Shown here piece after piece: positions 31,547 to 35,121 of a stretch of DNA of 64,000 nucleotides; the first letter of the stretch is position 1; each line of letters begins with the position of its first letter. Origin of the DNA: an uncultured Dehalococcoidia bacterium (lineage in GTDB: Bacteria > Chloroflexota > Dehalococcoidia > Lucifugimonadales > Australimonadaceae); assembly GCA_958295525.1 (NCBI GenBank), contig OY282355.1, forward strand, positions 1,915,931 to 1,979,930, written 5' to 3'. The notes beneath the pieces were generated by a model. The model saw nothing but the letters and a program-made list of their open reading frames with translations, was not told where the DNA came from and ran no database searches. Made by a program: the position numbers and the translations under genes.

Positions 31547-31659
31547 GGGAATCCCGCCTTCGCGGGATGACGGGCAAGGGGCGAGATTCCCGCCTTCGCG
31601 GGAATGACGGACATGGGGACTGCGCGCCCGACTGGATTCCCGCCTTCGCGGGAATGACG
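31547..31659 (+). repeat. cluster of three REP-like palindromic elements
   Basis: Copies at 31547-31572, 31583-31609 and 31632-31659. All carry loop CTTC: (G)ATTCCCGCCTTCGCGGGAATGACG (the first copy lacks one stem base, GCGGGAT). Confidence 0.85.
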
Positions 31660-31711
31660 GCAAGGATGGGACGACGACGGGGCAAGGAGGCGGCAAGGCG
31701 TTCCTCGAAAG

Positions 31712-33757
31712 TTACAGCGGCGGCATGCCGCCGCCGAGCGCGAACTCCGCGCTCCAAACCTCGCCTTGCGGGCCGAACTGCCCCGTTCGGATGGACACGA
31801 CGGGATACTCCGGCAACGAAACCGTCGCTACGCACTTCCCATCGAACAGCGCGCCATTGAGAAAGAAATCAAAGTCCAAGTTGTCGAAGCCGTGCTCGCG
31901 CCGCTCCTGCGGCAAGTCGTCCGTCCGCTCCGGGACGATATGCAGAAAGAAGCGATGCCCCGTATCTTCCTGAGCGCACTCCTCTTTGACGTACGTCAAC
32001 TGGCCGTCCGTCATGTGCAGATCGAATACGGAGCGCGCCACGGGCTCACCCGCTGCTGCGGCGCGGTAGGCCGCGCGGTAGGGTTCGGGATTCAGCCGGA
32101 CATTCGCGCTCCACAGGTCGCTCTCGTCCTGCGGGTTCCGCTGCCCCGTTCGGAAGGCGGCGATGGAGTAGTCGGGCAAAGGAACGAGCGCGACGCACGC
32201 GCCGTTCAACAGCATCCCATAGTGACGGAATTCGAAATCGAAGATGGAGTAGCCGGCCTCGCGCCGCTCCTGAAGCAAATCATCCATCCTCTCAGGGGCG
32301 ATATGCAGAAAGAAGCGCTTCTCCGCGTCTTCCTGATCGCACTCTTCTTTGACGTACACCAAACGTCCGTCCGTGAGGTGCAGATCGAATACGGAGCGCG
32401 CCACAGGCTCGCCCGCCACCACGGTTCGGTAGGCCGTCTGGTAGTAGGGCGTCAAGTCCAGCCCTCGGAGCCCCGGATAGTCAGGCGCGTAACGATAGGC
32501 GCGATAGACCAGGTCGTAGCCCAATTCGGGATTCACGAACTCCCAGACCATCTCGCCTTCCCGCGTGACCTCGAAAATTCGTTCGGCATCCCCGGCGGTG
32601 ATTAGCGTGTCGCCGTTCGGCAGCCGCTGCGCGCCCGACGATCTATGAGCGTAAAAGGCATCGGGCGGATCGGCGGCGTATGTCCAAACGCGCTCGTTAG
32701 GGCCGTAGGTGGAGCCTTCGTCCAAGCGATAGTTGTAGCCGTCGGCGGGCAAGGATATCTCGTCCACGGACGAGTAGCCGCGCTCCATTCCGGGATATTC
32801 CGATCCGTTATTGAAAATGAGAACGTTGCCTGCGCCCGGCAATCCTTCCGGAATCCAGTGGGCGTTGTGCGGCCAGAAGAGGCGCTGATCGGCTAATGTT
32901 CCCCTTTGGTATGCGCGCGGGTTGCCCCAGCGGTAGAGCAGGTCGCCGCCTTTGCCGCTGTTCCCGCCGGCGCTCCCGGCGGCCTCTTCCGCGTTCGTGG
33001 AGTGATCAATGATCCATATCTCGCTGAAATGCCGGACGGTGAGCATAATTTGATCCAAATCCTCGTTGTAGTCCAATGCATTAGCATGCTGCCAGTTGAG
33101 ATGGCGACCCCTAGAGCAAGTCTCTTCGGCGAGCGCAAAATTGATGTCTATGCGTTCAGGGTGGTCCACGACGACTCCGTAGTTCGATTTCTCCGGATCG
33201 AAGTCCTGGATGGTGTGGTCGAACGTCGACCATTGCCAGACGATCTCGCCGTCCACCGGTCCCGTAGGCCGAATTTCGACAATATGCGTTGCCCTTAGGG
33301 CGGGACAAGCAATCGAGCCCGGGTTGGCGCCGAGCGCGATAGCCTCCTCGCGCGAAATGAAGACGTGGGACAGGCTGAGTATGTTCCCATTCGGCATTTT
33401 GAGAAGGTCGTGATGCTGGAGGTAACGATAATTCCAAACGGCGTTCCCGTCAGCGTCAAATATCCTGTTGCCGCTTGTCAGCAAGTTCCCGTCATCGAGC
33501 AGTTTCACTAGACGCGGGTTATGCCTCAATGTCCACGTGTGAACAACTCGTCCGTGGTTGTCGATCAGGTAAGCAAGGCCTGAAAACCGTGGAGTGAAGA
33601 GGGTATAGCCATCGAACGCCTCCGGTTCGTTCACAAGCAGCCCTGTTGCCCGATGGGTCGGCTCCGGCGCAGCAGTGGGAGTGGGCGTAGGGGCGAGCGT
33701 AGGCGTCGGCGCAGGCGATGGAGCGCCGGCGGAGCATGCGGCGAGCAGCGCAGGCAA
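31712..33757 (-). CDS. arylsulfotransferase (ASST)-family beta-propeller protein, probable lipoprotein, with two C-terminal 120-aa repeats; start unresolved
   Basis: ASST-like blocks include HHDLLKMPNGN, WQHANALDYNEDLDQIMLTVRHFSEIWIIDH, LYRWGNP, and GAQRLPNGDTLIT. The first canonical start (TTG 33757) truncates the signal peptide. Confidence 0.8.
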   Translation of the reverse strand: MPALLAACSAGAPSPAPTPTLAPTPTPTAAPEPTHRATGLLVNEPEAFDGYTLFTPRFSGLAYLIDNHGRVVHTWTLRHNPRLVKLLDDGNLLTSGNRIFDADGNAVWNYRYLQHHDLLKMPNGNILSLSHVFISREEAIALGANPGSIACPALRATHIVEIRPTGPVDGEIVWQWSTFDHTIQDFDPEKSNYGVVVDHPERIDINFALAEETCSRGRHLNWQHANALDYNEDLDQIMLTVRHFSEIWIIDHSTNAEEAAGSAGGNSGKGGDLLYRWGNPRAYQRGTLADQRLFWPHNAHWIPEGLPGAGNVLIFNNGSEYPGMERGYSSVDEISLPADGYNYRLDEGSTYGPNERVWTYAADPPDAFYAHRSSGAQRLPNGDTLITAGDAERIFEVTREGEMVWEFVNPELGYDLVYRAYRYAPDYPGLRGLDLTPYYQTAYRTVVAGEPVARSVFDLHLTDGRLVYVKEECDQEDAEKRFFLHIAPERMDDLLQERREAGYSIFDFEFRHYGMLLNGACVALVPLPDYSIAAFRTGQRNPQDESDLWSANVRLNPEPYRAAYRAAAAGEPVARSVFDLHMTDGQLTYVKEECAQEDTGHRFFLHIVPERTDDLPQERREHGFDNLDFDFFLNGALFDGKCVATVSLPEYPVVSIRTGQFGPQGEVWSAEFALGGGMPPL

Positions 33758-33810
33758 GAGCGCTGATGCGATTCCTCTCCAAATGGGCGCCGGAATACGA
33801 AATTCGCAAC

Positions 33811-33824
33811 GGGGGGGGGGGGGG
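33811..33824. repeat. G14 homopolymer (C14 on the ASST coding strand)
   Basis: Counted directly: positions 33811-33824 are all G. Confidence 0.95.
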
Positions 33825-33946
33825 TAATGGAGTATACAGTCATTTTACGGTGACTTATGACGTATTTCGTAATCGGCAGGCGCTGCGGCCGCCTGCGGCG
33901 CAGGAACATTGTAGCACGGCGCTCAGCGCGGGAGGGAGTCGGGGGC

Positions 33947-34141
33947 GAGATTCCCGCCTACGCGGGAATGACGAGGGAGGGGGACGAGATTCCCGCCTGC
34001 GCGGGAATGACGGGGCACAGGGGCGAGATTCCCGCCTACGCGGGAATGACGAGGGAGGGGGACGAGGTTCCCGCCTACGCGGGAATGACGGGGCAAGGGC
34101 GCTTGCGCGCCGACTGGATTCCCGCCTGCGCGGGAATGACG
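33947..34141 (+). repeat. tandem array of five REP-like palindromic elements (periods 39, 39, 39, 50 nt)
   Basis: Copies at 33947-33973, 33986-34012, 34025-34051, 34064-34090 and 34114-34141. Positions 33943-34020 and 34021-34098 form a 78-bp tandem duplication with about 4 mismatches. Confidence 0.9.
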
Positions 34142-34164
34142 GACATGGGGGCGAGGCGAGGCGC

Positions 34165-35121
34165 CTATTCCCTGCCCAGGTACGCTAGGAGCGCTTCTCT
34201 CGACGAGTGGGCGAAGCGATGGCCCGTCTCCGCTGCGACTCGCTCGGCGCTGACCATCCAAGGCCAGCGGATGAACGCCAGCCCGGCGGCGGGGGCGTCG
34301 CTTTGCAGGCGCGTCCGCCACGCGAGTTCCGTGAGGCCGGACGCGAGCGGCGCCGGCATCGGGACGATGCGCTTTCCCGCGAGCGCGGCGGCTTCGCGCC
34401 AGCGCACGCTCCCCTGCCCTGCGACGTTGTACGCGCCCGGGTGGTCTTCCATCAGAAAGCGGACGAGCAGCGCGGCGAGGTCATCCTCGTGAACGAATTG
34501 CATCGGCGGGTCGGCTCCCCGGAGGGCGATGAGAACGGGCTTGCCGAGCGCGGCGGTTATGAAGTTGTCCGCGTTCGGCCCCATCACGACGCAGGCGCGC
34601 AGGACGGAGAGGCAGACGTCAGGGCTCTCCTGCGCCATTGCGCGGAACGCCGCCTCCGCCTCCGCCTTGTCCTCGGCGTAGGCGAATCCGGGGGGCGGGC
34701 GCAGGGGCGCGTCCTCCGTCAGCAACGGCGGATTGTCCGGCCATGCGCCGTAGACCGTCGCGCTGGACATAAGAACGGCGCGCCGGACGCCCGCGTTCGC
34801 GCAGGCGCGCGCCGCGTTCTCCGCGCCGCCGACGTTGACGCGCTTGCCCTCGGCCCGGTCGCGCGGCTGGCGCATCAGAAACGCCAAGTGGGCCATCGCG
34901 TCCGCGCCTGCGAACGCGGCGTCCAGCGGCGCGCAAACGTCCTGCCGGAAGTGCGCGTACCGCTCGTCGTGAACGGCGGCGGGGCGGACGTCCACTCCGG
35001 CGACGCGCTCGATTTCCGGCTCGGCGAGCAGCCTTCGGACGAGCAAGGCGCCGAGATAGCCGGACGCGCCGGTGACGGCGACTTTCCGGGTCCGGGGGCC
35101 GGAGCCGCGCGAAGCGTCCAT
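34165..35121 (-). CDS. NAD-dependent epimerase/dehydratase-family (extended SDR) protein
   Basis: VAVTGASGYLGALLVRRLL Rossmann motif, with size and layout typical of the family. Confidence 0.85.
   Translation of the reverse strand: MDASRGSGPRTRKVAVTGASGYLGALLVRRLLAEPEIERVAGVDVRPAAVHDERYAHFRQDVCAPLDAAFAGADAMAHLAFLMRQPRDRAEGKRVNVGGAENAARACANAGVRRAVLMSSATVYGAWPDNPPLLTEDAPLRPPPGFAYAEDKAEAEAAFRAMAQESPDVCLSVLRACVVMGPNADNFITAALGKPVLIALRGADPPMQFVHEDDLAALLVRFLMEDHPGAYNVAGQGSVRWREAAALAGKRIVPMPAPLASGLTELAWRTRLQSDAPAAGLAFIRWPWMVSAERVAAETGHRFAHSSREALLAYLGRE

Follow-up and report, generated by a model that had tools for sequence, protein, structure and literature searches.

A poly-C tract in the signal-peptide coding region of a Dehalococcoidia arylsulfotransferase gene as a candidate slipped-strand switch

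The 64,000-nt stretch of DNA analysed here (the window; positions 1,915,931 to 1,979,930 of the forward strand of contig OY282355.1, assembly GCA_958295525.1, from an uncultured Dehalococcoidia bacterium) carries on its minus strand a gene for a predicted arylsulfotransferase (ASST) lipoprotein, the first codons of which contain an unbroken run of 14 C, seen on the plus strand as 14 consecutive G. The ASST open reading frame (ORF; 31712..33757, TTG start, 681 aa) matches the Pfam family PF05935 (ASST) over residues 87-421 (E = 3e-18, 66.4 bits against a cut-off of 24.2), and a sequence search found no relative of the protein in the PDB. On the coding strand the order around the tract is ...CCGTAAAATGACTGTATACTCCATTA-C14-GTTGCGAATTTCGTATTCCGGCGCCCATTTGGAGAGGAATCGCATCAGCGCTCTTGCCTGCGCTGCTCGCCGCATGCTCC... 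The tract is the sole homopolymer longer than 7 nt across the window, where a first-order Markov model of the same DNA predicts 0.001 G/C runs of 14 nt or more; the preliminary description, which was made from this sequence, had rightly called it exceptional. We propose that the run may act as an ON/OFF switch of the gene, operated by slipped-strand mispairing.

The reading frames that meet at the tract are as follows. From the ATG at 33843-33841 the assembled sequence reads MTVYSITPPPP, then departs from the ASST frame with VANFVF... and ends after 70 aa, at the stop codon 33631-33633; one extra C (C15) or two fewer (C12) fuses this ATG to the ASST frame, giving MTVYSITPPPPRCEFRIPAPIW... The ASST frame itself stays open upstream as far as a TAA at 33847-33845, reading ...YPPPPRCEFRIPAPIWRGIASALLPALLAAC, with ATG, GTG and TTG all absent from this extension, and its first canonical start, TTG 33757, opens MPALLAACSAG. 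These frame relations had been set out correctly in the preliminary description, and the restored frame that it predicted for C15 is found exactly as such in an orthologous locus (L034, see below).

MPALLAAC is probably too short to serve as the signal peptide of a lipoprotein. By eye, the lipobox pattern [LVI][ASTVI][GAS]C, preceded by a hydrophobic region (h-region) and a positively charged N-terminal region (n-region), is present in ...RIPAPIWRGIASALLPALLAAC, and only with a start upstream of TTG 33757; the product fits a predicted lipoprotein precursor processed by signal peptidase II. Since the signal peptide would have no n-region without an upstream start, we infer that the true start of the gene is ATG 33843 and that ribosomes use it. 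Across the family, a start 3' of the tract would leave signal peptides of just 8-12 residues that lack a charged n-region, and in one member (L032) no possible start lies between the tract and the h-region. Two other arrangements were considered and rejected. Use of TTG 33757, or of a TTG following a GGAGAGG motif, as the true start would leave a signal peptide of 8-11 residues lacking an n-region, and other clades do not share the motif. Pairing of the pyrimidine tract with GGAGAGG, as an anti-Shine-Dalgarno partner, does not agree with the predicted fold, in which the tract is unpaired, and the purine motif is clade-specific.

Further upstream, the extended -10-like element TGCTACAAT (33916-33908) is likely to be the ASST promoter. 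A two-hexamer promoter scan of 33650-34200 found no full sigma-70 site and also missed this element, and a terminator scan was likewise empty. The hexamers TAAAAT and TATACT, which had been described as promoter-like and upstream of the tract, sit on and after the ATG (TAAAATG; GTA TAC TCC) and so lie inside the coding region; they are not supported as promoter elements. The features of the gene start are collected in Table 1.

Table 1. Features at the start of the ASST gene, in window coordinates
Feature	Position	Strand	Remarks
Extended -10-like element TGCTACAAT / GCTATAAT	33908..33916	-	Present in 11/13 family leaders; L160 not searched for it; in L162, TGCTATAAT by eye
TACGAAAT, inverted partner of ATTTCGTA in the box	33864..33871	-	Conserved in window-type leaders only
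ATG, conserved proximal start of the family (M-T-V-Y-S-I-T...)	33841..33843	-	Does not share the ASST frame as assembled here
C14 homopolymer (G14 on the plus strand)	33811..33824	-	Codons 7-11 of the predicted ASST pre-lipoprotein; candidate frame-setting, hypermutable tract
Conserved box GTTGCGAATTTCGTATTCC, near-palindrome TRCGNA-T-TTCGTA	33792..33810	-	Encodes R-C-E-F-R-I-P in rare T-ending codons
TTG, first canonical start in the ASST frame	33755..33757	-	Opens MPALLAACSAG; merely MPALLAAC ahead of the Cys
Lipobox L-A-A-C (CTC GCC GCA TGC)	33734..33745	-	h-region GIASALLPALLA and Arg-containing n-region upstream of TTG 33757
ASST lipoprotein gene (predicted)	31712..33843	-	710 aa if the tract is C15; here split into ATG...tract (frame A) and ASST body (frame B)
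Predicted OFF-phase product, 70-aa out-of-frame peptide MTVYSITPPPPVANFVFRRPFGEES...	33631..33843	-	ORF translation

The closest database proteins are encoded on large circular contigs from sponge-sample metagenome assemblies in the European Nucleotide Archive (ENA), and the nearest named genome match is a Dehalococcoidia metagenome-assembled genome (MAG). Locus L034, on a 2.53-Mb contig, shares the gene order of the window (class II aldolase, a 122-aa HMG-CoA_red_N-like gene, epimerase, ASST and a large nuclease-helicase) and is 96.1% identical to it over 7.6 kb. Between 32800 and 33946 the two are 100% identical apart from the tract, which is C15 in L034, where the ATG reads directly into MTVYSITPPPPRCEFRIPAPIWRGIASALLPALLAACSAG... 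and through to the end of the gene as an intact 710-aa frame. The tract is the sole frame-breaking indel between window and L034 in coding DNA (~6 kb of genes); the remaining indels are one of 3 nt in the ASST gene, three short ones (1, 4 and 5 nt) upstream of the aldolase gene, where the DNA is probably non-coding, and others in repetitive extragenic palindrome (REP) elements. A third syntenic orthologue (L160/L161) has C7TTC10 (19 nt), which again places the ATG out of frame, and carries a second in-frame ATG (MGAWSGIA...) 3' of the tract. Tract length thus varies among the three syntenic loci, from C14 in the window to C15 in L034 and C7TTC10 in L160, as in contingency loci. Comparison with related genomes, which the preliminary description had proposed, finds poly-C runs in relatives too, with C9-C18 at the same codon position in diverged members.

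In all, 13 homologous leaders were recovered (including one on a contig of run X5), the diverged members being ~60% identical in amino acid sequence and coming from other assemblies. Common to them is an order of elements comprising a -10-like GCTA[CT]AAT, the proximal ATG with 6-13 codons, a pyrimidine or poly-C stretch, the box, an Arg/Trp-rich n-region, the h-region and the lipobox. The proximal ATG is in frame with C15 in L034 and X5, C16 in L032, C10 in L158, C4TC9 in L159 and, overall, C10 in L162; the copies in which it falls outside the ASST frame are the window (C14), L033 (C18) and L160 (C7TTC10). In leaders where the tract is absent or interrupted (L031, L035, L036, L001 and L157), it is in frame in 5/5. 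Counted over assembled copies, the conserved ATG is out of frame in three of eight with a long tract (window, L160, L033), compared with none of the five tract-less ones. The length of the tract region varies among in-frame copies by 6 or 9 nt (alignment A1), which, together with the in-frame ATG of the tract-less copies, points to translation of this region. Some ASST paralogues have the pyrimidine stretches CTTCTCTTC and CCTCTCCCC at the tract position.

Two members of the family call for comment. The long ORF of L033 (P0037) was rejected as proof that C18 is in frame there, as its 792-aa frame is open only when read from an ATG within the -10 box, and MTLIAL, the conserved start, does not share that frame. 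In L162 (1040-1140, on a short-read scaffold), the conserved leader segments YSVTPPP, HYELRIP and MIGIAF lie in three different frames, and yet the frame from ATG to ASST is open, which would imply compensated frameshifts around the C10 run.

Codon choice sets the tract apart from a proline linker. Over 30 long ORFs of the window, proline is encoded by CCC in 33% and by CCG in 44% of cases, and each of the 13 other stretches with at least three prolines mixes its codons; the prolines of the ASST leader are pure CCC, spanning 9-18 nt in ASST copies that are only ~60% identical at the amino acid level. Because they are purely CCC across such diverged copies, unlike the other proline runs of the window, the tract would be more than a linker, and it bears the signature of a simple-sequence repeat that is kept or regenerated by slippage and not by amino-acid selection. 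All homopolymers of at least 9 nt in the ~125 kb examined (the window plus Dehalococcoidia loci) are located in ASST leaders, with one exception, an intergenic G11 run (L158 627-637) adjoining an isoleucyl-tRNA synthetase gene. A pattern scan of metagenome contigs with GTTRCGNATTYCGTATTC returned only chance matches, from gut and soil.

Read evidence was taken from assembler contigs of public sequencing runs (Logan), and not from raw reads. Five runs of one sample, the likely source of the window, contain the locus, and even depth across genes suggests that these runs are DNA. In run X1, which otherwise shows no differences from the window, a 95-nt contig over 33798-33891 has G15 at a depth of 14, compared with 11-14 for its neighbours; a contig of X2 has G15 at a depth of 24.9, the full depth of the organism; and in X3 the tract lies on a 193-nt contig and is exactly G14 (depth 4.2). 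In X4 and X16 no contig spans 33796-33915 at 15-22x, presumably where the assembly graph broke at the tract and short stubs were clipped. Sponge-metagenome runs X6-X9, and run X11, gave nothing alignable to the tract region. The X2 (G15) and X3 (G14) contigs both run past 33891 into a second flank variant, and the window-type flank is seen with C14 (this assembly) and C15 (L034), so that both lengths occur on both backgrounds. Recurrent slippage predicts this pattern; homopolymer sequencing noise could produce the same one, contigs cannot separate the two, and the difference within the sample between G15 (X1, X2) and G14 (X3) may be technical in origin. As X1 and X2 show G15 at full depth, the dominant length in the source population leans to C15, roughly 60:40, and the C14 of the window would be either a true OFF state or a one-base miscount, with the reads leaning towards C15. 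The assembly indel suggested in the preliminary description may still apply to this copy, with G15 in contigs of two runs in its favour and G14 in one run against it. The second leader variant, between the -10 element and 33891 (window 33892-33910, runs X1-X3; coding strand ...TACAATGGCCAACGCCGCCT/CGGCCGC...), replaces the CCTGCGCCGCAGG hairpin of the window; it comes from another strain or from a paralogue.

What the data show directly is how the gene start is built, that an orthologue with C15 is in frame, that tract length differs between near-identical loci and between runs, and that pure C runs recur in the family. The tract is moreover a perfect mononucleotide G/C run well above the slippage threshold (about 8 or more) and is located within an ORF, at codons 7-11 after the conserved ATG, where a change of length would switch the frame, both of which are features of contingency loci. 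We put at about 0.6 the probability that the poly-C run is a slipped-strand contingency (ON/OFF) switch in the signal-peptide coding region, and among the three options of the preliminary description this one is the best supported. Translation would proceed from ATG 33843 through the CCC prolines and the conserved R-C-E-F-R-I-P, and on through an n-region that contains Arg and a hydrophobic h-region to the lipobox LAAC, with the number of C residues setting the frame: C15 (or C12, C18) would give the full 710-aa pre-lipoprotein (ON), and C14 a 70-aa nonsense peptide together with an ASST body that has no usable start (OFF). Slipped-strand mispairing in replication would alter the run by one base at high frequency, so that cells of one lineage would turn surface ASST on and off at random, and a genome with several tract-bearing paralogues could express varying subsets of them. 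The switching rate, selection for variation and the biological (as opposed to technical) origin of the variation in the sample are what we infer from these data.

Similar devices are known in several bacteria. Neisseria pilC1/pilC2 have a poly-G tract in the signal-peptide coding region. The ASST gene resembles pilC in having a G/C homopolymer of more than 10 nt among the opening codons of a protein that is secreted or displayed on the surface, within the part that encodes the signal peptide, where a one-base slip shifts the whole mature protein. It differs from pilC in its organism (an uncultured Dehalococcoidia-like Chloroflexota sponge symbiont, and not a mucosal pathogen), in its product (an ASST enzyme lipoprotein, and not an adhesin), and in the location of the tract in an unusual N-terminal extension before the n-region, and its switching is here a proposal. 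Like Neisseria opa, with its CTCTT pentamers in the leader-peptide coding sequence, the ASST genes are a multi-copy family with a repeat in each copy, and the copies could switch independently; unlike in opa, the repeat is a homopolymer, only some ASST paralogues have a long run, and independent switching is presumed. Phase-variable repeats of Neisseria in general are treated in PMC5084427 and PMC5320596. The intragenic poly-G/C contingency genes of Campylobacter jejuni and Helicobacter, as described in PMC8355987 and PMC2823697, likewise have G/C runs of 8-18 nt that vary between near-identical strains, with in-frame and out-of-frame states mixed in assemblies. Tracts there occur in dozens of unrelated genes, whereas here, in the ~125 kb examined, the long runs are confined, with the one exception given above, to ASST leaders. 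The promoter C-stretch of Bordetella fim2/fim3 (PMC1891110) is also a poly-C of about 13-15 nt that lies upstream of a surface-protein gene body and next to a regulator binding site; it acts in the promoter by spacing, whereas here the evidence favours a translated position and an effect on frame, and the palindrome is without a known binding protein.

Several points weigh against a switch. The evidence on tract length within the sample comes from contigs only, and a homopolymer of 14-15 nt is miscounted by every platform, so the mixture of G14 and G15 may have a technical cause; G15 is what the best-matching run supports, which means that the C14 of the window may be a consensus error; and most long-tract copies are in frame, as expected for a plain proline-coding run. 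A second in-frame ATG 3' of the tract in L160, L031 and L001 would blunt the switch, and the sample of leaders is small and partly of our own choosing. In addition, conservation of the box next to the tract extends to its nucleotides, which spell rare codons, and L162 keeps the box though another frame is read there; this indicates that something besides coding acts on the ASST leader. On a rival view the run would be a stable in-frame C15 coding four prolines, C14 would be a homopolymer error of the assembly, and the differences between strains would be slow divergence with no switching. For such a miscount speak the G15 of X1 and X2 at full depth, the C15 between identical flanks in L034, the in-frame majority of long-tract homologues, and the contig names of related assemblies, which are typical of PacBio HiFi assemblers; HiFi reads are less accurate in long homopolymers. 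It has to contend with the independent G14 in X3, the absence of any further frame-breaking indel between the window and L034 in ~6 kb of genes, the 19-nt out-of-frame variant of L160, which miscounting cannot produce, the out-of-frame C18 of L033, and the pure CCC runs of 9-18 nt in diverged copies, which are unlike selection for prolines under this codon usage. Simple-sequence repeats as long as C15 are expected to slip at high rates, and the run would do so whatever its purpose. We regard the miscount as unlikely, though it has to be reckoned with. If C14 is instead genuine, full-length protein might arise by transcriptional slippage or -1 ribosomal frameshifting, with low constitutive expression and no switch: the frame of the ASST body is -1 to that of the ATG, and the tract offers a perfect slippery sequence, C CCC CCC. 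Polymerases are known to slip on long homopolymers, and rescue occurs in this way at poly(A) tracts in insect endosymbionts. L034 and the tract-less paralogues have a single zero frame, so there is no conserved recoding arrangement of the kind that marks a frameshift gene, no stimulatory structure is found 3' of the run beyond a weak 4-bp hairpin, and recoding would make the switch leaky rather than replace it; we give this explanation very little credence.

The conservation of the box bears on a further explanation, in which the tract is untranslated or regulatory, the start lies downstream, and tract length tunes expression through the TACGAAAT-to-TRCGNA-T-TTCGTA spacing or through RNA structure, as in the promoter tracts of Bordetella fim and Neisseria opc/porA. 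Across the family leaders the box is GTTRCGNATTTCGTATTC, encoding R-[CY]-x-F-R-I-[PL], and its variable positions are second codon positions. Its F-R-I is TTT-CGT-ATT, codons with shares of 0.195, 0.133 and 0.216 in the window (joint 0.0056 given F-R-I), and both this use of rare codons in a palindrome conserved at the nucleotide level and its unusual frame in L162 would suit a leader element. So would the GGAGAGG at 33780-33774, which resembles a ribosome-binding site and is followed at good spacing by a TTG in L035 and L036, and the habit of gene callers of picking downstream starts. The predicted fold of the leader RNA pairs TACGAAAT with the box and is somewhat better than that of shuffled sequences (z = -1.98), and this pairing is not conserved outside window-type leaders; TACGAAAT may be an operator half-site or the arm of an RNA stem. 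Against an untranslated tract stand the short signal peptides without a charged n-region that downstream starts yield (MPALLAAC here), the lack of any such start in L032, the ATG-to-Cys frame, which every tract-less homologue keeps, tract-region lengths that differ by multiples of three, a spacing between the two boxes that varies by 6-9 nt among copies, and the absence of GGAGAGG from other clades; an Rfam search matched no family to the leader and gave only weak chance matches in REP repeats. The idea of a 5' leader tract modulating expression, another of the options raised at the outset, is therefore disfavoured, and we think it improbable. As the box uses rare codons and persists in another frame in L162, a function at the DNA or RNA level, for example as the operator of a family-wide regulator, is likely to overlap its coding function.

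Returning to the slipped-strand switch, an extension of it to the whole family is possible, albeit tentative: the ASST lipoproteins of sponge-associated Dehalococcoidia may form a multi-locus contingency system, in which many paralogues, each with its own poly-C run in an extended signal-peptide region, would switch independently. A clonal symbiont population would then show changing subsets of surface sulfotransferases, perhaps in relation to phenolic or sulfated metabolites of the host, host recognition or phages, and a regulator acting at the conserved palindrome next to the tract would provide a second level of control. Slippery-repeat phase variation is viewed as a trait of host-adapted pathogens and animal commensals. 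If the reading is correct, the device would reach a new phylum and a mutualistic marine holobiont; Chloroflexota, and non-pathogenic marine symbioses as well, would gain their first described case of repeat-driven phase variation, and ASST enzymes would be marked out as proteins whose display on the cell surface is under fluctuating selection. Full-text literature searches returned, among the papers listed, no report joining phase variation or homopolymeric tracts with sponge symbionts; one paper names phase variation and Dehalococcoidia a single time each and concerns an unrelated organism. A slipped-strand tract in a signal-peptide coding region would be of a known kind, of which we found none described for this phylum and lifestyle.

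For annotation, a frameshift at such a tract would be worth flagging as a possible switch state, instead of being silently treated as a pseudogene or 'corrected'. Public gene calls shorten many members of the ASST family or start them wrongly: P0011 (L034 3001-4683) is begun at an internal Met and has 560 aa, though the 710-aa frame is open, and P0002, P0008 and P0007 (L035, L036 and L159, respectively) are called from starts within the h-region despite an in-frame upstream ATG.

Compared with L034 over 31650-33946, the ASST gene of the window is mosaic, with 0 differences in 32800-33800 and 5-30 per 100 nt in the 3' part, which encodes two C-terminal repeat modules; this suggests recombination or gene conversion among paralogues. 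The gene is flanked by REP-like arrays (GTCATTCCCGCGYAGGCGGGAAT...) at 33947-34141 and 31547-31659. Words of these repeats reach a summed depth of 10^4 in the runs, compared with 12-30 for single-copy DNA, so that the sample must contain the element in extreme abundance. Any likeness of its core, ATTCCC-N8-GGGAAT, to the neisserial dRS3 repeat is one of form only.

A G-run of comparable kind is present in an unrelated MAG. In this Candidatus Azophilus genome (Gammaproteobacteria, OZ241358.1; L003 1374-1389), an ASST paralogue with 50% identity has G16 on its coding strand just after an N-terminal membrane anchor, which does not share the reading frame of the ASST domain. A sister paralogue (L002) is run-free and in frame; the G16 run may represent convergent evolution of a poly-G/C device.

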